Shown: piece by piece, positions 53,936 to 64,000 of the stretch
Layout of the letters: every line of letters begins with the position of its first letter
Numbering within the stretch: position 1 is the first letter of the stretch
Assembly: GCA_963787835.1 (NCBI GenBank)
Contig: CAWBEI010000002.1
Coordinates: 1,792,001-1,856,000, forward strand
DNA: 64,000 bases
DNA from: Ignavibacteriota bacterium
Lineage (GTDB): Bacteria > Bacteroidota > Ignavibacteria > Palsa-1295
Direction of reading: 5' to 3'
Notes under the pieces: generated by a model
Database searches by the model: none
The model's input: only the letters and a program-made list of their open reading frames with translations
What the model was told of the DNA's origin: nothing
Program-made: the position numbers and the translations under genes

Positions 53936-54630
53936 ATGTCCTTCAGCAACATTCAATCAAAAAACATCAGAGATCTCGTCATCGTCCGCGACAAAAGCGT
54001 TGATTCCCGGTACAAAAACGGCGAAAAGACCGCCATTACCGATTTTATCGAGGACTACATGAATGGCCGGGTGGACATCACCTGTGATTTTCAGGACCTG
54101 ATCCGCAACCGGACGCTTTTCTTCAAATATGCTTTCGTAAATCATCACCTGAAATTTCTTTTCTCGCGATTTATTCCAGAAGTGACCATTCACTCGGCGA
54201 AACAGGATGAGCGGGTCATTCGCAGTCATTACGATCGTGGTAACGATTTCTTCGGTGGATTTTTGGGCGAGCGTATGATCTATACCTCCGCCTTTTTTAA
54301 GACCGGATTGGAAGATCTCGAAACGGCACAGGACCAAAAACTCGATCTCGTGTGCCAGAAGCTTCAGCTTAAACCGGGCGAGAAACTGCTCGACATCGGC
54401 TGCGGATGGGGTACGCTTGCAGCGCACTCTGCAAAATATTACGGCACCGATTCGACCGGTATCACTATCGCGCAAAAAGGCGCGGACTACGCGAACGACC
54501 AGATCAAGCGATGGGGCGTCGCCGATCATGCGCGCGTGTTGCGCATGGATTATCGTTCCATCCCTGCCGCGAAGTACGATAAGATATCCTGCCTTGAAAT
54601 GGCCGAGCACGTCGGTGTGAAATACTTCCA
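53936..54630 (+). CDS. Cfa-family SAM methyltransferase (sphingolipid C9-methyltransferase-like), truncated at the junction
   Basis: Motifs HYDRGNDFF..FLGERMIYTS, LDIGCGWG, CLEMAEHVG. Homology stops at KYFQ, where GC content jumps. Confidence 0.85.
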
Positions 54631-54640
54631 GAGGCCGCGC
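54625..54640. other. Abrupt compositional junction (medium-GC to very high-GC DNA)
   Basis: Codon style and GC change within about 10 nt, mid-gene; no att site, integrase or IS end is visible. Confidence 0.9.
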
Positions 54641-54759: not shown

Positions 54760-56232
54760 ATGAGCGTGGGCAACAGCGAGGAGATCCTTCACGCCGACGG
54801 GCGCGTCGAGCTGCGCGATCCGGAGGCGCTGCGCGCGTCGTCGCTGTTCAACGAGGACCTCGCGCCGGTCGCGGTCGCGCGCCGCACGTGGTCGACGTGG
54901 GACTACGCCGCGCTGTGGATCTCGATGGCGCACTGCATCCCGACCTACAAGATGGCGTCGGGGCTGATCGCGAGCGGCATGGCGTGGTGGCAAGCGCTGC
55001 TCACCATCTTGCTCGGCAACTTGATCGTGCTCGCGCCGATCCTGCTCAACTCGCATCCCGGCACGAAGTACGGCATCCCGTTCCCGGTGTTCGCGCGAGC
55101 CGCGTACGGCACCGCCGGCTCGAACCTGCCGGCGCTGATGCGCGCGGTCGTCGCGTGCGGCTGGTTCGGCATCAACACGTGGATCGGCGGCCAGGCGCTG
55201 CACACGTTCTTCGTGTCGATCTATCCGCCGTGGCAGAACCTGATCGGCGACCTCGACGGCTTCCCGGGCACGCAGTGGATCGCGTTCCTGCTGTTCTGGG
55301 GGCTCAACATCCTGATCATCTTCCGCGGCATGGACGTGCTCCGCCGCGTCGAGCGCTTCGCGGCGCCGTTCGTGCTCGTGATGACCGCGGTGCTCGTGTA
55401 CTGGGCGATCGATCGCGCGGATGGGCTGGGGCCGATCATGTCGCAGACCGGGTTCACCGGCGAAGGGAGCTTCTGGGCGGTGTTCATCCCGTCGCTGACC
55501 GCGACGATCGGCTTCTGGTCGACGCTGTCGCTCAACATGCCGGACTTCACGCGCTTCGGCCGCTCGCAGAAGGAGCAAGCGGTCGGGCAGGTGATCGCGC
55601 TGCCGACGACGATGACCGGCTTCGCGGCGATGGGCATCGTGATCACGTCCGCGACCGTCATCATCTTTCACAAACCGATCGCGGATCCGATCGAGCTCGC
55701 GTCGCATTTTTCGGATCGCCTGATCGTCGGCATCGCGATGTTCACGGTCGTGATCGCGACGCTCGCGGTCAACATCGCGGCCAACGTCGTCTCGCCCGCG
55801 AACGACTTCGCGAACGCGTTTCCGCGCGTGATCGACTTCAAGCGCGGCGGCCTCATCACGGGCCTCGTCGGCATCGCGATGATGCCGTGGGAGCTGCTCA
55901 AGGACGAGCACAGCTACATCCTCGGCTGGCTGGTCGGCTACTCCGGCTCGCTCGGCGCGGTCGCGGGCGTGCTGATCGTCGACTACTGGCTCATCCGCAA
56001 GACCAAGCTCGACCTCGCGGCGCTGTACTCGCGCGACGGGGTCTATCGCTACGACGGCGGCTGGAACCTGGCCGCGGTCGTCGCGACGTTGCTCGGCGCC
56101 GGGGCGGCGCTCGCCGGCGCGTTCGTGCCGCCGCTGCACTTCTTGTATGACTGGTCGTGGTTCGTCGGCTTCTTCCTGGCCGGCGGTATGTACTGGGCGC
56201 TGATGCAGTCGCAGCGCCTACATTCTCGCTGA
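54760..56232 (+). CDS. NCS1 family nucleobase:cation symporter (uracil/allantoin/hydantoin permease)
   Basis: Motifs NEDLAP, GTKYGIPFPV..RAAYG, GWFGINTW, LNMPDFTRF, NIAANVVSPANDF; about 12 TM segments. Confidence 0.95.
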   Translation: MSVGNSEEILHADGRVELRDPEALRASSLFNEDLAPVAVARRTWSTWDYAALWISMAHCIPTYKMASGLIASGMAWWQALLTILLGNLIVLAPILLNSHPGTKYGIPFPVFARAAYGTAGSNLPALMRAVVACGWFGINTWIGGQALHTFFVSIYPPWQNLIGDLDGFPGTQWIAFLLFWGLNILIIFRGMDVLRRVERFAAPFVLVMTAVLVYWAIDRADGLGPIMSQTGFTGEGSFWAVFIPSLTATIGFWSTLSLNMPDFTRFGRSQKEQAVGQVIALPTTMTGFAAMGIVITSATVIIFHKPIADPIELASHFSDRLIVGIAMFTVVIATLAVNIAANVVSPANDFANAFPRVIDFKRGGLITGLVGIAMMPWELLKDEHSYILGWLVGYSGSLGAVAGVLIVDYWLIRKTKLDLAALYSRDGVYRYDGGWNLAAVVATLLGAGAALAGAFVPPLHFLYDWSWFVGFFLAGGMYWALMQSQRLHSR

Positions 56233-56338
56233 GGACGGGAGTCCCAAGCGGCTGGACCTGTGGGCTGCGTGCCACGATCCGATCGTCGGGAATCTGCACC
56301 CGCGACGAAGGATCAAGGTGATCGTGAGGCCAGAGCGA

Positions 56339-56352
56339 GGCACGATGAGTGC
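56339..56352 (+). promoter_or_regulatory. Sigma54-like -24/-12 promoter, kinase 1
   Basis: GGCACGATGAGTGC (GG-N10-GC), 15 nt before ATG 56368. Confidence 0.7.
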
Positions 56353-56367
56353 ACTACGCAAATGTCG

Positions 56368-57377
56368 ATGACCGAATCTCAACCCGGCGATCGCATGGCG
56401 CCGGGCGTTCGCGTCGGGGACTACATCATCCAGTCCGAGCTGCGTGTCGAGGACACGGGGGTGGTCTACGAGGCGACGCACGTGGTGCTGCCGCGCCGGG
56501 TCGCGCTCAAGATCATGCATCGCGATCCGTGGCTGCGCGAGATGGCGGTGCAGATCGTGCGCGAGGCGTGCGTGCTCGAGGGACTCGACCATCCCGGCAT
56601 CCCGCGCGTGTTCGAGTGCGGCTTGCTCTCGGATCGCAGCCCGTGGATCGCGATGGAGCGCATGGACGGGGTGACCGTCGCCGAGGCGGTCGGCGGCAAC
56701 AGCATGCTGAGCGTGCCCGAGGTCATCTACCTGTTGCGCGACGCCGCCGAGATCCTCGCGAGCGCGCACAAGGCCGGCGTCATCCATCGCATGGTCACCG
56801 CCACGAACCTCGTGCGCACCGCCGGGCGAAAGTTTCCCTATTCGCTGCGCAACTGGTCGGACGCGTACAACCTCGAGGTCGAGCTCGACGGCGTGGTGCC
56901 CGCGGGCCTGGTCGACGAGCGCGACGACGTTCACGCGCTCGGCGCGATCGCGTTTCGCGCGCTGACCGGCGAGCTCGCGGGCGCCGGCGAATCGTCCGCA
57001 GGCATGCGCCCGATGGCGCCGACCGAGCTGACCGAGCTGATCGATCAGATGATCGGACCGAGCGCGAGCAGCGACCGACCGCAGCCGACGTCTGGGAGCG
57101 CGCGACGCAGATCGCGCAGGCGATCGAGCTGATCCCGGCGCTCACGCAGATCGACAAGCCGCGGTGGACGCCCGCGTACGGCCTGTCGCCGGATCGCATG
57201 CCGTCGAAGACGCAGCCGCCGTCGATGTCGTCGACGATGACGGTGAGCGGCGCGACCGCGGCGCCAGCTGCGCCGGCCCCGGTCGTCGCGGCGGCTGTCG
57301 CGCCTGCGCCGGAGGCCGAGCCCGCGGTGCCGCGCACGTTGTCCGAGCTCGAAGTGCGCTTCAAGTCGCGCTCGTAG
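56368..57377 (+). CDS. Ser/Thr protein kinase-like protein 1 (pseudokinase); apparent frameshift ~57060
   Basis: RRVALK, REA..L..LDHPGIPRV. HRD replaced by HRM and DFG by NWS. The tail QRPTAADV..KPRWTP continues in another frame. Confidence 0.8.
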
Positions 57378-57486
57378 GGTCTGGCGACCAGGCAGGGTCG
57401 GCTGTCCCGATCCGCGGCCGGGTCTGCGTGCCTCGGCCTCGCGACTATGTCTGCGCCACTGCTCGCGCGATCCGCGTCGCGCGCGA

Positions 57487-57500
57487 GGCATGGCGAGTGC
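57487..57500 (+). promoter_or_regulatory. Sigma54-like -24/-12 promoter, kinase 2
   Basis: GGCATGGCGAGTGC (GG-N10-GC), 15 nt before ATG 57516. Confidence 0.65.
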
Positions 57501-57515
57501 ACTTGCCGGTGATCG

Positions 57516-58507
57516 ATGCGAATCGCGATCGGCAGCCGCCTCGGCAACTATCGCGTCGCGCGCGAGCTCGGCGCGACCGCGACCGGCATGTTGTACGCCG
57601 CCGAGCACGTCGTGTTGCCGCGTCGCGCGCTGATCGAATCGCGCACGCCGCGCTCCCCGGCAGCTCGGTGCCGATGTTGCGCGAGGCGTGCATCCTCGAG
57701 GCGCTGCGCCACGCCGGCCTGCCGGCGGTCTACGAGTCCGGCCTCCTCGCCGACGATCGGCCGTGGTTCGCGTTCGAGGACGTCTGCGGCGAGCGGCTGT
57801 CCGAGGCGCTCGCGCGCGGGCCGCTGCGTCCGATCGAGGTCGCGCGGCTGATCCGCGACGTCGCGCGCGTGCTCGAGCACGCGCATCGCCGCGGCGTCGT
57901 GCATGGCGCGCTGCGTCCCGAGCGCATCGTGCTGACCGGCGCCGGCCGCGGCTTCGCGGTGTGCATCACGGAGTGGGGCAGCGCGCGCACGTACGACGCC
58001 GCGCCGGCAATCCCGCACCTGCCGACGCCGGGCTCGCGCGCGTACCTCGCCCCCGAAGCGCAGCGCGGTGACGCGATCGACGATCGCGCCGATATCTACG
58101 CGCTGGGCCTGCTCGCGTGCCAGGCGCTGACCGGCTCGTTGCCGGCCGCGACGTTGCCGCTGACCGTGCGCGAGCGCTGTCCGCGCGCGCCGCGCGAGCT
58201 CGCGATCGTGATCGACCAGATGCTCGCGCACGATCGCTTCGATCGGCCGAGCAGCGCCGAGGTGCTCGGCGACATCGCGTGGGTCACCGAGGGCGCCGAG
58301 GCGCTGCAGGATCTGCCCGCCGTCGCCGAGGTCGAGCTCGTCGATATCGACGACGCGGTCGACGCCGATGCCGAGGCCGACGCGATCGCCGCCGCCGCCG
58401 AGCCGCCGCTGCGCATCCGCAAGCCGCGCTGGACCCCGAACGGCATGGCGACGTTCGCGATCAGCGAGCTCGAGCGCGAGCAGCAGCGCGCGCGCGGCCG
58501 CAGCTGA
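57516..58507 (+). CDS. Ser/Thr protein kinase-like protein 2 (pseudokinase); apparent frameshift ~57636
   Basis: GSRLGNYRVARELG..HVVLPRRAL, then LREACILEALRH, HGALRPERI, EWG, YLAPE, DIYALG, KPRWTP. Confidence 0.8.
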
Positions 58508-58591
58508 CGCTCGGGTGCGTCGACCCTCCTCGCGCGAGCCCGGGCCTGTGCACCCTAGCCTCAACTGCGCGACTCGCCTCGATCCGCGCGG

Positions 58592-58605
58592 GGCACGCAG
58601 CGTGC
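58592..58605 (+). promoter_or_regulatory. Sigma54-like -24/-12 promoter, kinase 3
   Basis: GGCACGCAGCGTGC (GG-N10-GC), 15 nt before ATG 58621. Confidence 0.7.
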
Positions 58606-58620
58606 ACTAGCGACCGTGCG

Positions 58621-59403
58621 ATGAGCCACCACGGACGGGGAGCGGTGATCGGCGACTACACGATCGAGGCCGAGGTCTCGCAGTCGCGGACGGCGTGGAC
58701 CTACGAAGCGACGCACGCGCGGCTCGGCCGGCGCGTCGCGCTGAAGATGATGCCGCCGCTGCAGGCGTTTCGCGGCGCGAAGCAGCAGTTCCTGCGCGAG
58801 GCCGACGTGCTCGATCGCCTGCGCCATCCCGGCATCGCGCGCGTGTACGACTGCGGCGCACTGCCCGACGGCCGCGCGTGGTTCGCGCTCGACCGCGCGA
58901 CCGGCCCGTCGCTCGCCGAGGTCATCGCGAGCGGCGCGCGCGTCGATCCGCTGCGCGTGATCCTCGAGCTCGCGTCGATCATCGAGCACGCGCATCGTCA
59001 GGGCCTCGCGCACCGCAACCTGCGCGCCGACGCGATCGTGTGCGGCACCGATCCGCGCGGCCCGGCGCTGCGCATCGACGACTGGTCGCAGTCGCGCGAG
59101 CTCCTGACCGCGCCGTCGGATGCGACCGCGGATGTCCACGCGCTCGGCGTCATCGCGTTCCAGTGCCTGTCGGGCGTGATGGCGTTCGGTGCCGCGCCGC
59201 CCGCGCTGAACGGCGTGTCGGCCGCGGACCGGTTTCCGCGCGCATCGCGCCTGCTCACCGCGATCATCGATCGCATGCTGGTGAACGACGTCCGCGCGCG
59301 GCCGTCGATCGGCGAGGTCCGCGAGGCCGCGCTCGCGCTGGTCGCGGCCCAGGTGCGCGCACCGGCCGCGGGCAGCGACACGCGCTCCGCGATCGGGCGA
59401 TGA
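58621..59403 (+). CDS. Ser/Thr protein kinase-like protein 3 (pseudokinase)
   Basis: IGDYTI..RRVALK..FLREA..LRHPGIARVYDCG; HRNLRADAI, DWS, DVHALG, RP. Confidence 0.82.
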   Translation: MSHHGRGAVIGDYTIEAEVSQSRTAWTYEATHARLGRRVALKMMPPLQAFRGAKQQFLREADVLDRLRHPGIARVYDCGALPDGRAWFALDRATGPSLAEVIASGARVDPLRVILELASIIEHAHRQGLAHRNLRADAIVCGTDPRGPALRIDDWSQSRELLTAPSDATADVHALGVIAFQCLSGVMAFGAAPPALNGVSAADRFPRASRLLTAIIDRMLVNDVRARPSIGEVREAALALVAAQVRAPAAGSDTRSAIGR

Positions 59404-61342: not shown

Positions 61343-62845
61343 TCAGCGGTTCGTCGGGAATCCGAGATCGACGCCGCGGTGCCTGGGCTCGGGCCAGCGC
61401 GACGTCACCGCCTTGGTGCGCGTGTAGAACTGCACGCCGTCGCGGCCGTAGATGTGGAGGTCGCCGAACAGCGACGCCTTCCAGCCGCCGAACGAGAAGT
61501 ACGCCATCGGCACCGGAATCGGCACGTTGATGCCGACCATGCCGACCTCGACCTCGTGCTGGAACTTGCGCGCCGCGCCGCCGTCGTTCGTGAAGATCGC
61601 GACGCCGTTCGCGTACGGGTTCTTGTTGATCAGCGCGATCGCGTCGTCGTAGCTCGCGACGCGCGTGACGCCGAGCACCGGGCCGAAGATCTCGTCCTTG
61701 TAGATCGACATCGCCGGCGTGACGTGATCGAACAGGCTCGGGCCGAGGAAGAATCCGCCCGCGCCGCGGCCGCCGACCTTGAGCGTGCGGCCATCGCTGA
61801 CGAGCGTCGCGCCCTCGGCGACGCCGGCATCGACGTAGCCCGCGATGCGATCGCGTGCTTGCTTCGTGATGATCGGGCCCATCTCGCTGGTCGCGTCGCT
61901 GCCGTCGCCGACGCGCAGCTTCGCGATGCGCTCGCGCATGAGCGGGATCAGGCGATCCGCGGCGCTGCCGACCGCGACGACCACCGAGATCGCCATGCAG
62001 CGCTCGCCGGCCGAGCCAAAGCCCGCCGACACCGCCGCGTCCGCCGCGAGCTCCATGTCCGCGTCGGGCAGCACGATCATGTGGTTCTTGGCGCCGCCGA
62101 GCGCCTGCACGCGCTTGCCGTGCTTGGTGCCGGTCTCGTAGATGTACTGCGCGATCGGCGTCGAGCCGACGAACGACACCGCGGCCACCTTCGGGTGCTC
62201 GAGCAAGCGGTCGACCGCGACCTTGTCGCCGTGCACGACGTTGAGCACGCCCGCGGGCAAGCCGGCGTCCGCGAGCAGCTGCGCGCAGAACATCGAGCAC
62301 GATGGATCGCGCTCGCTCGGCTTGAGCACGAACGTGTTGCCGCACGCGATCGCGAGCGGGTACATCCACATCGGGACCATCGCGGGGAAGTTGAACGGCG
62401 TGATGCCGGCGACGACGCCGAGCGGCTGGCGGAGCGAATAGGTATCGACCTCGGTCGACACGTTCTCGCTGTGCTCGCCCTTCTGCAGATCGGCGATGCC
62501 GCACGCGAACTCGATGACCTCGAGGCCGCGCTGCACCTCGCCCATCGCGTCGGCGGTGACCTTGCCGTGCTCGCTCGTGAGCAGCGCGGCGATCTCGTTC
62601 GCGTGCTTGTGGACGAGCTCGCGGAATCCGAACATGACCTTGGTGCGCTTCGCGATCGACGCGCTGCGCCAGGTCAGCGACGCGCGCACGGCCGACTCGA
62701 CCGCCTCGTCGACCACCGCCGGGGTCGCCATCGCGACCTTCGCCTGGACCTCGCCGGTCGCGGGGTTGAACACGTCGCCGCTGCGCTCCGCGGTGCGCTC
62801 GTATGCCTTGCCGTCGATCCAGTGCGAGATCGTCTTCGTCGCCAT
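61343..62845 (-). CDS. mmsA: CoA-acylating (methyl)malonate-semialdehyde dehydrogenase
   Basis: Motifs ITPFNFPAMVP, LKPSERDP, SFVGST, GGAKNH, GERCMA, EIFGPV. Confidence 0.95.
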   Translation of the reverse strand: MATKTISHWIDGKAYERTAERSGDVFNPATGEVQAKVAMATPAVVDEAVESAVRASLTWRSASIAKRTKVMFGFRELVHKHANEIAALLTSEHGKVTADAMGEVQRGLEVIEFACGIADLQKGEHSENVSTEVDTYSLRQPLGVVAGITPFNFPAMVPMWMYPLAIACGNTFVLKPSERDPSCSMFCAQLLADAGLPAGVLNVVHGDKVAVDRLLEHPKVAAVSFVGSTPIAQYIYETGTKHGKRVQALGGAKNHMIVLPDADMELAADAAVSAGFGSAGERCMAISVVVAVGSAADRLIPLMRERIAKLRVGDGSDATSEMGPIITKQARDRIAGYVDAGVAEGATLVSDGRTLKVGGRGAGGFFLGPSLFDHVTPAMSIYKDEIFGPVLGVTRVASYDDAIALINKNPYANGVAIFTNDGGAARKFQHEVEVGMVGINVPIPVPMAYFSFGGWKASLFGDLHIYGRDGVQFYTRTKAVTSRWPEPRHRGVDLGFPTNR

Positions 62846-62946: not shown

Positions 62947-64000
62947 GTGTCCGACCTCACCATCACCGTCAACGGCATGAAGTTCGAGAACCCGTTCGTG
63001 CTGGGCTCCGGCCCGCCCGGCACCAACGGCAAGGTCATCGCGCGCAGCTACGACCTCGGTTGGGGCGGCATGGTGTGCAAGACGTTCTCGCTCGACGCGA
63101 GCAAGGTCATCAACACCGCGCCACGCTACGCGAAGCTGCGCGGCCGCACGAGCGAAGAGGTCATCGGCTTCCAGAACATCGAGCTGATCAGCGATCGGCC
63201 GTACGCGGACTGGCTCGACGATCTCCGCCAGCTCAAGAAGAACTATCCGACGAAGATCCTGATCGCGTCGATCATGGAGGAGTACACGAAGGCCAGCTGG
63301 CAGAAGATCGTGCGCGAGGTCCAGGAGACCGGCGTCGACGGCTTCGAGCTCAACCTCAGCTGCCCGCACGGCCTGCCCGAGCGCAAGATGGGATGGCGAT
63401 GGGCGAGAACCCCGACATCGTCGAAGAGGTCTGCGGCTGGGTCAAGGCGGTCAGCAAGCTGCCGGTGTGGGCGAAGATGACGCCGAACGTCGGCAACCCG
63501 ACGGTGCCGGCCGCGGCCGCGCTGCGCGGCGGCGCCGATGGCATCGCGATGATCAACACGATCCTCAGCGTCAGCGGCATCGACCTGAAGACGCTGCGAC
63601 CGATGCCGACCGTCGAGGGCCACAGCGTGCCCGGCGGCTACAGCGGGCAGGCCGTGCGGCCGATCGCGCTGCGCCAGGTCATGGAGGTCGCGCGCGCGAA
63701 CCCCGGCGTCGCGATCAGCGGCATCGGCGGCATCGAGACCGGCTACGACGCCGCGCAGTTCTTCTTGCTCGGCGCGTCGACGGTGCAGGTGTGCACCGGC
63801 GCGATGCTCCGCGGCTACGAGATCATCAGCGAGCTCAAGGAAGAGCTGTCGAAGTTCATGACCGACCACAAGTTCGGCAACGTGCGCGACTTCATCGGCA
63901 AGTCGCTGCCGTACTTCACCACGCACCACGATCTCGTCGATCGCCAGAAGGCGTCGCGCGACGCGAAGGAAGCCGCGCGCGGCGACAAGAAGACCGCGAC
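62947..64000 (+). CDS. preA: Dihydropyrimidine dehydrogenase FMN subunit (PreA / plant PYD1-like); apparent frameshift ~63393; runs off the window edge
   Basis: NPFVLGSGPP, NIELISDR, ELNLSCPHG, then AKMTPN, GGYSGQAVRPIAL, SGIGGI, VQVCT in the next frame. Confidence 0.92.

Follow-up and report, generated by a model that had tools for sequence, protein, structure and literature searches.

The window analysed here, a stretch of 64,000 nucleotides from contig CAWBEI010000002.1 of the public assembly GCA_963787835.1 (deposited as an Ignavibacteriota bacterium), carries three tandem genes with a protein kinase fold, each behind its own sigma54-like promoter. These genes, which have counterparts in dozens of related species, are conserved copies of a kinase that, judged from their residues, are likely to be catalytically dead, and they belong to an uncultured soil myxobacterium, not to the main organism of the assembly. 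Together with their relatives they form a real and undescribed variant of a bacterial pseudokinase and sigma54 regulon. Its promoter is more general, and its enhancer and partner are more specific, than was supposed in the first-pass annotation, a reading of the DNA letters alone which had described a co-regulated triad of dead kinase modules acting as scaffolds, decoys or allosteric regulators.

Conserved loss of the catalytic residues

The products of all three genes (Table 1) pass the Pfam Pkinase cut-off and all lack the Asp of the HRD motif, which makes them pseudokinases by the sequence definition, i.e. the loss of at least one of the beta3 Lys, the HRD Asp and the DFG Asp. The motif changes already noted in the first pass are borne out, with HRM, HGA and HRN in place of HRD and NWS, EWG and DWS in place of DFG in genes 1, 2 and 3, respectively, as is the loss of the activation segment from two genes, namely 1 and 3; gene 2 retains YLAPE. 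The beta3 Lys and the alphaC Glu, which had been overlooked, are retained in genes 1 and 3 and in the intact relatives of gene 2, which itself has Glu at both Asp positions. The Trp pointed out in the first pass is indeed present in all three; it is not specific to pseudokinases and was inherited from an active DWG kinase, and its origin as a pseudokinase innovation is ruled out by the intact kinases K1 and K2 (see below), both of which carry DWG. The altered motifs also withstand comparison with independent sequence, as near-identical contigs of another run span the HRM/NWS stretch with 2 differing letters and the HRN/DWS stretch with 6.

A search with gene 1 gave 165 homologues, the named ones labelled Kofleriaceae or Deltaproteobacteria, and the records of 69 genome loci are labelled Kofleriaceae (38), other Myxococcota (26) or other/none (five). 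The loci hold arrays of one to four genes. An N-terminus is present in 130 family genes, for which the alignment has 126 rows, with short fragments left out and window gene 2 entered as a C-terminal piece. Three subtypes can be told apart. Type A (n=51) has the Lys in 48, the alphaC Glu in 51 and the catalytic Asp in none, with an activation segment shortened to 15–28 residues. Type B (n=41) has the Lys in 40, the Glu in 41, HxGLRPDR with a conserved Asp-Arg in the catalytic loop, DWS, an Asp at the DFG position in 36 and APE in 39. Type C (n=34) is mixed, the Lys being mostly gone, and includes eight members with Asp at the HRD column that have no Lys. The beta3 Lys and the HRD Asp occur together in none of the 126 genome-derived members, and HRD[LVI]K is found in 0/119 type A and 0/119 type B database homologues, while the full motifs are found in 116/120 K1 sequences. 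A family match was detected in 26 of 61 genomes of the order, a count that includes the unpublished genome G207 (25/60 without it).

The ratio of non-synonymous to synonymous substitution rates (dN/dS), estimated by codon counting, is 0.03–0.41 across 41 disjoint close pairs of family genes and 0.17, 0.39 and 0.46 for the three window genes, compared with the nearest relative. The overall range of 0.03–0.46, with no value near 1, indicates purifying selection on conserved pseudokinases. Sequencing error or decay as the cause of the motif changes is thus ruled out by family conservation, dN/dS and the independent contigs. The earlier idea of a catalytically dead kinase family therefore stands as regards conservation and selection, its lack of activity being a prediction from the residues. 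For one type A and one type B relative, AlphaFold2 predicts a kinase fold with confidence (pLDDT 87.7 and 88.0; tails 49–60), and the best Foldseek match of the B model is PknB (E 2e-19); the ESM Atlas gave generic kinase clusters only. Two further kinds of gene were observed at the arrays: a stand-alone receiver-domain gene inserted behind the type A gene (L005, L009, L023, L030, L032 and L068), and, past the array, a small acidic open reading frame that belongs to no known family and has a palindrome and box of its own (L058:6689-7006; L062 near 7900).

The assignment to a myxobacterium follows from the chimeric nature of the assembly at about position 54631. The GC content is 47–54% per 2 kb up to ~54630 and then ~70% over the last 72 kb of the contig (C2); the remainder of the assembly is near 50% GC, so that the 72-kb piece is foreign to the rest. 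The joint lies within a methyltransferase gene (at 53936), which is broken by it and whose CMAS match ends at residue 232, and a contig of an independent run (X2) tracks the window as far as 54631 and then diverges. In comparison with intact relatives, gene 1 changes frame at 57055–57060; contigs from two runs have an extra A behind 57055, and hence this break is likely an assembly error. Gene 2 changes frame at 57647–57665, where no near-identical contig spans the break, and this is probably an error of the same sort. The preA gene (window 62947–63998) looks frame-broken too, with frames switching near 63480, which fits indel errors in the 72-kb piece. The end of another contig (C6) climbs to 61% GC, and a second mis-join is possible there. 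A foreign piece of 72 kb in a public assembly would mislead the taxonomy of its genes.

Sigma54-like boxes in a predicted near-leaderless layout and an upstream palindrome

Each of the three genes is preceded by GG-N10-GC (at 56339, 57487 and 58592), and in all three exactly 15 nt lie between the GC and an ATG preceded by CG, as had been read in the first pass. The common pattern is GGCAYG-N4-GTGCA; written as GGCAYGNNNNGTGCA, a pattern drawn from the same three sites on which it is counted, it occurs three times in the window against 0.05 expected, and 0/100 shuffles reach three. In gene 1, another ATG in the same frame follows the GC at a distance of 9 nt. Among the homologues, a box is present in 69 of the 130 family genes, with an in-frame ATG (42) or GTG (27) 11–19 nt past the GC, 67 of them at 13–16 nt. 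Conservation of box and spacing is thus partial: 61 of the 130 genes have no box, many of these abutting the stop codon of an NCS1 permease gene or having a TANNNT-like word ahead of the start, and the spacing is 13–16 nt rather than fixed at 15.

The same layout is found throughout the genomes of relatives. In one of them (G001), perfect boxes are fewer than in the reversed control (212 vs 366), and an ATG lies 13–16 nt past the box in 125 of the 212, compared with 13 at 21–24 nt and eight in the control. In an 800-kb sample, 16 of 19 boxes have a plausible start 13–18 nt downstream, and GG/GC spacings that are off by one base show no peak. In a second relative (G002), 30 of 36 TGCA-type sites were fetched, and all 30 are followed by open, coding-like frames of many kinds, including an HypC with a Met-Cys start. 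At least 20 such near-leaderless sigma54-like sites are present in 14 of 151 genomes of the phylum. The presence of boxes with the same spacing genome-wide in G001 and G002 rules out a kinase-specific promoter layout; the arrangement is a habit of the Kofleriaceae and not special to the triad. The missing Shine-Dalgarno sequence is likewise real, and is a genome-wide habit in a Kofleriaceae relative instead of a mark of the three genes: the 800-kb sample has a TANNNT peak 6–8 nt before ATG and no Shine-Dalgarno peak, and Shine-Dalgarno-like words precede 5/69 family box genes vs 8/69 in the background.

On the sigma54 -12 numbering, the leaders would be 1–4 nt long, or absent if initiation takes the pyrimidine-purine step at the start codon; such a step is found at the start codon in 25/30 of the G002 sites, and at or one base before the start in 57/69 family genes. 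A scan for sigma70 sites gave none. The sigma54 gene rpoN is present in 5/5 relatives, the source genome itself being known only from 72 kb. FHA-bearing sigma54 activators are reportedly known from earlier work, and in G001, 29 of 93 strong enhancer-binding-protein matches share a frame with an FHA-like domain, as matched by place and frame length. The 93 matches exceed the 53 sigma54 activators reported for Myxococcus xanthus (PMC4320627). Contigs from one soil RNA run, derived from a relative at 88–93%, span all three genes, one of them starting at 58624; no conclusion on expression is drawn, since one further contig runs across the promoter of gene 2 and DNA may be present in the library. 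As a separate observation, short peptides with double-glycine-like leaders are encoded behind sigma54-like boxes (L075, L078, L082, L088 and L219), and these may be precursors of bacteriocins or of ribosomally synthesized and post-translationally modified peptides.

Further upstream, all three window genes have the palindrome RGGWC-N4-GWCCY, exact or with one mismatch (Table 1). Ahead of the 69 family boxes it is exact in 26 and within one mismatch in 48, compared with two and nine at 60 boxless family genes and with 32 and 169 (5.6%) in 3000 random windows, the enrichment at family boxes being partly circular because the motif was drawn from the same upstream regions. An exact palindrome precedes only one of 30 other G002 boxes, and that gene is a pseudokinase. 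In independent tests, palindrome-plus-box combinations number 33 in 61 family genomes vs two in the control, and eight vs none in five genomes, the eight comprising four training genes, one further pseudokinase, one C-lobe remnant and two unrelated genes. Among 30 such loci are five pseudokinases (two from training), six AgmX/PglI-tail-like proteins, three CglB-like vWA proteins and six Ig-like lipoproteins, most of the AgmX/PglI-tail-like and CglB-like assignments being below the NCBIfam cut-offs; the rest encode mostly exported proteins, and the set may point to a regulon for the cell surface or for gliding. Leaders of 26–45 nt are seen in some of the AgmX/PglI-tail-like, CglB-like vWA and Ig-like lipoprotein genes with this combination. 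Palindrome distances are roughly phased, with clusters at 43, 53, 62, 73 and 83 bp; for a period of 10 bp the resultant is 0.53, or 0.33 when each distinct value is counted once.

The palindrome is likely an enhancer shared with exported-protein genes, and is treated here as a candidate site. The co-regulation proposed earlier thereby gains a new argument, the palindrome being shared upstream of all three genes, and loses some of its exclusiveness, in that the palindrome also marks genes for exported proteins. An RNA hairpin is disfavoured, the two W positions being unpaired in 13/26 exact sites and no terminator-like site being found there. As regards the activator, no exact palindrome was found in 30 activator loci examined (of 104) in one relative, and activator genes were present in 4/105 loci screened, with no common family established.

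An active sister kinase and the proposed mechanism

The active sister of the family, K1, a single-domain Hanks kinase of Kofleriaceae, is encoded in a divergent pair with a second intact kinase, K2, in 13/13 such loci fetched; the homology searches also turned up two K3 kinases. K1 has GxGGMG, HRDLKPDN, DWG and the same RWTP tail as the pseudokinases. In these pairs (L105–L117) each gene mostly has a near-leaderless box of its own, that of K1 often being GGCAAG, and the neighbours are stress-type genes (BON, DUF1328, holin-X-like and trehalose genes), often with a receiver-type activator and a hybrid histidine kinase. In a quick tree of 97 rows the pseudokinases form one clade (SH-aLRT, an approximate likelihood-ratio support, of 99), joined to K1 at 87. 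Across 120 K1, 119 type A and 119 type B sequences, 40 positions are at least 90% identical in all three groups: 20 are in the N-lobe or hinge (including H36, L39, P40, R41, E70, D88, R90 and W92), four form the RWTP motif, and others lie in the core of the C-lobe. The residues confined to K1 and lost in the pseudokinases are the Gly loop, D141/K143/N146, the P+1 loop and alphaG. Read from this alignment, the family retains the back face of the K1 N-lobe, at the position of Leu33 of PknB, and not its substrate face. The Leu aligned to PknB Leu33 is retained in 119/126 members, and a Glu invariant in type A aligns with PknB Asp76, presumably an interface residue. The tail motif [RK]W[TS]P is present in 105/119 type A, 118/119 type B and 119/120 K1 sequences; the RWTP tails are of low confidence (disordered) in both AlphaFold2 models, with no docking of the tail on its own domain in either. 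K1 and pseudokinases are found together in 20 of the 26 pseudokinase-bearing genomes, and K1 alone in 1/61.

A precedent for pairing of this kind is PknB, in which Leu33 centres a back-to-back dimer, the kinase-dead protein stimulates the wild type, and L33D abolishes the stimulation (10.64898/2026.10.08.757607). On this model, an activator bound at RGGWC-N4-GWCCY would drive sigma54 transcription of each pseudokinase gene from its own promoter, beginning at the start codon or 1–4 nt ahead of it. The pseudokinases would then form back-to-back pairs with kinases of the K1 family, by way of the surface centred on the PknB Leu33 position, and set the activity of the kinase, much as kinase-dead PknB acts on wild-type PknB. 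The threonine of RWTP would be phosphorylated by an active kinase and the phosphorylated motif bound by the same partner as the tail of K1, probably an FHA domain, so that the dead copies may compete for that partner. This reading as a whole, in which one shared activator induces near-leaderless mRNAs through sigma54 and dead copies of K1 tune K1-type signalling by binding and not by phosphorylation, is the most likely of those considered, at about even odds. A wider version is more tentative and, taken in full, doubtful: most of the very large sigma54 regulon of Kofleriaceae would be expressed from leaderless mRNAs, and within it one activator would induce arrays of natural dead kinases. These would partner an active paralogue allosterically, compete with it as decoys through their phospho-tails and feed back on sigma54 activators that bear an FHA domain; no such circuit of kinase, pseudokinase and enhancer is known to have been described for bacteria.

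Several observations weigh against the tuning of K1 by its dead copies. On the side of the partner, the support of 87 for K1 as sister branch was obtained in a quick tree search that included few outgroups; six of the 26 genomes with pseudokinases gave no K1, and one of these six has long contigs; K1 is unlinked to the pseudokinase array, and its co-occurrence with the pseudokinases may come from shared descent. On the side of the surfaces, the Leu33 position is retained too in 4/6 unrelated active kinases, the RWTP tail is absent from window gene 3 and from many type C members, and the T+3 residue, hydrophobic in K1 and type B, is mostly Q/H in type A, a poor fit to the usual FHA preference. 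The N-lobe is not always needed, since a 202-residue remnant without a Pfam match (L127:882-1487, minus strand), which consists only of a kinase C-lobe and a KWTP tail, is preceded by this palindrome together with the box. On the side of the promoter, the palindrome is missing ahead of the K1 and K2 boxes, and the association of box and palindrome on the tree is a trend only (5.3 vs 0.8 independent pairs, median p 0.125).

Some of these points lead directly to the best-surviving alternative, which is unlikely and would make the proteins adaptors resembling MviN: the kinase fold would be a stable carrier, and the phosphorylated RWTP tail would recruit or sequester an FHA protein with no pairing to K1. 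If that protein were an FHA-bearing sigma54 activator, its binding by the tail would close a feedback loop on the pseudokinases' own promoters. The near invariance of the tail in A, B and K1 and its disorder in both models, the remnant of C-lobe and tail under the same promoter, the pseudokinase genomes in which no K1 was found, the 29 FHA-like activators in one relative and the recruitment of FhaA by the phosphorylated tail of MviN (PMC12599244) are all consistent with adaptors, which leave unexplained the 20 near-invariant N-lobe and hinge residues in common with K1, as well as the selection on window gene 3 in spite of its missing tail.

It is quite improbable that type B, and perhaps type A, binds ATP and acts as a nucleotide-dependent switch or as an atypical enzyme with a rebuilt loop (HxGLRPDR, DWS). 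The near-complete retention in type B of the Lys, the alphaC Glu, the DFG-position Asp (40, 41 and 36 of 41) and the Asp-Arg of the catalytic loop, along with a full activation segment ending in APE (39/41), is what such a protein would need, whereas the Gly loop is degenerate, the catalytic Asp and Asn are gone, both Asp are replaced by Glu in window gene 2, type A is without an activation segment and type C mostly without the Lys. Slightly less probable still is regulation by the array of the reductive pyrimidine-catabolism cluster that surrounds it. An NCS1 gene adjoins the type A gene in 44/50 loci and that for methylmalonate-semialdehyde dehydrogenase (MMSDH) is there in 31/50, and many boxless type A genes begin a few bases past the NCS1 stop; against this, gene order may simply be inherited, other members lie at unrelated loci (metH/cysteine synthase-like; peptidase/tsaE-like), and the palindrome regulon consists of exported proteins, not of catabolic enzymes. 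That the GGCAC-N5-TGCA box is an operator, or the site of another sigma factor, is highly improbable: the bases before the GG (mostly A/G) and at -15 (C/G) do differ from the TGGCAC-N4-TTGC consensus, but the strict GG-N10-GC spacing with no peak one base off, rpoN in all five relatives, the 93 activators in one of them and the constant distance to start codons at 125 sites argue for sigma54.

Neighbouring genes, known systems and significance

The features of the window are collected in Table 1. The NCS1 permease gene is the usual upstream neighbour of the array. Downstream, preA at 62947 has PreA as its best match, below the cut-off on a partial frame, and by these matches preA and the MMSDH gene are part of a pyrimidine-catabolism cluster around the array.

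Table 1. Position of the pseudokinase genes, their control elements and neighbouring features in the window.
Feature	Position	Strand	Remarks
Chimeric joint	54631..54635	none	GC step ~50% to ~70%; within methyltransferase (CMAS-like) gene
NCS1 nucleobase permease	54760..56232	+	TIGR00800 above cut-off
Palindrome, candidate enhancer of gene 1	56232..56245	+	exact match
Sigma54-like -24/-12 box, gene 1	56339..56353	+	15 nt before ATG 56368
Gene 1, type A pseudokinase	56368..57377	+	beta3 Lys and alphaC Glu present, HRM, NWS, activation segment deleted; frameshift 57055-57060
KPRWTP tail motif, gene 1	57156..57173	+	read in frame after break
Two palindromes, candidate enhancer of gene 2	57377..57408	+	57377-57390 one mismatch; 57395-57408 exact
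Sigma54-like box, gene 2	57487..57501	+	15 nt before ATG 57516
Gene 2, type B pseudokinase	57516..58507	+	HGALRPER, EWG, YLAPE present; frame change 57647-57665
KPRWTP tail motif, gene 2	58421..58438	+	
Palindrome, candidate enhancer of gene 3	58513..58526	+	one mismatch
Sigma54-like box, gene 3	58592..58606	+	15 nt before ATG 58621
Gene 3, type C pseudokinase	58621..59403	+	Lys present, HRN, DWS, activation segment deleted, no RWTP tail
CoA-acylating (methyl)malonate-semialdehyde dehydrogenase (MMSDH)	61343..62845	-	TIGR01722 above cut-off

With PknB of Mycobacterium tuberculosis the family shares the Hanks fold and, at the Leu33 and Asp76 positions, Leu and Glu, respectively. PknB, however, is active and membrane-bound, and its dead subunit is a laboratory mutant, whereas the proteins described here appear to be soluble, naturally dead paralogues in arrays, for which pairing is a prediction. 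The kinase-homology domain of MviN (ActPs3) resembles them in its dead kinase fold, its activation-loop deletion, its back-to-back surface and a tail proposed as a phospho-docking site (PMC12599244); it differs in being actinobacterial, membrane-linked and without the beta3 Lys, while types A and B keep the Lys and the alphaC Glu, are soluble and stand-alone, and have the RWTP tail. Seven bacterial pseudokinase families (ActPs1-3, GLW, CP1, DYD and DLHK) are described in the bSTK Atlas, all with the VAIK Lys substituted and none, in the accessible part of that source, described as myxobacterial (10.1101/2025.01.12.632604); the same seven are listed in PMC12599244. These families also have substituted catalytic-triad residues in a Pkinase domain. 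The Kofleriaceae family differs from them in that it mostly keeps the Lys and loses the HRD Asp, and has neither the GLW, DYD or DLHK motif nor fused domains, a distinction drawn from descriptions, the supplements of the Atlas possibly classifying some members. The VAIK Lys, absent from all ActPs1, ActPs2, ActPs3, GLW and DLHK proteins, is present in 48/51 type A and 40/41 type B members; in place of the fused COG3899 ATPase domain of CP1, members are single domains of ~250–370 residues at their loci, where longer forms were not searched for; and instead of the DYD motif of the membrane-associated DYD family, which lacks the alphaC Glu, they have xW(S/G), with the Glu in 92/92 A and B members.

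In M. xanthus, 11 of 99 Hanks proteins lack a catalytic residue, and seven of the 11 are developmentally regulated (PMC6791715). These are likewise myxobacterial Hanks proteins without a catalytic residue; in the accessible text they are listed, not characterised, and the comparison is by description, the family matches found here being labelled Kofleriaceae/Haliangiales or unclassified. The PexR promoters of M. xanthus (katB, ahpC) similarly combine a -24/-12 box with palindromic upstream sites, often paired (PMC12754779); in the window and the family, however, the start codon lies 13–16 nt past the GC, with a predicted leader of 0–4 nt, and the palindrome is a candidate site. A leaderless mRNA is proposed in the accessible text of PMC12754779 only for a sigmaA promoter, and leaderless mRNAs and sigma54 promoters are both reported in PMC3616915, with no link drawn between them in the part available. 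Searches of the open-licence literature gave no account of the pseudokinase family, nor of myxobacterial sigma54 promoters that are leaderless.

Bacterial pseudokinases are almost untested. For this family, an active sister is named, a candidate interface is mapped and the tail has one conserved threonine, so that allostery between kinase and pseudokinase can be tested directly with purified proteins. With 125 of the 212 perfect boxes of G001 lying 13–16 nt ahead of an ATG, sigma54 transcription in a common soil lineage would as a rule be leaderless, and the distance from box to ATG offers an inexpensive means of locating starts and promoters in the genomes of uncultured Kofleriaceae.

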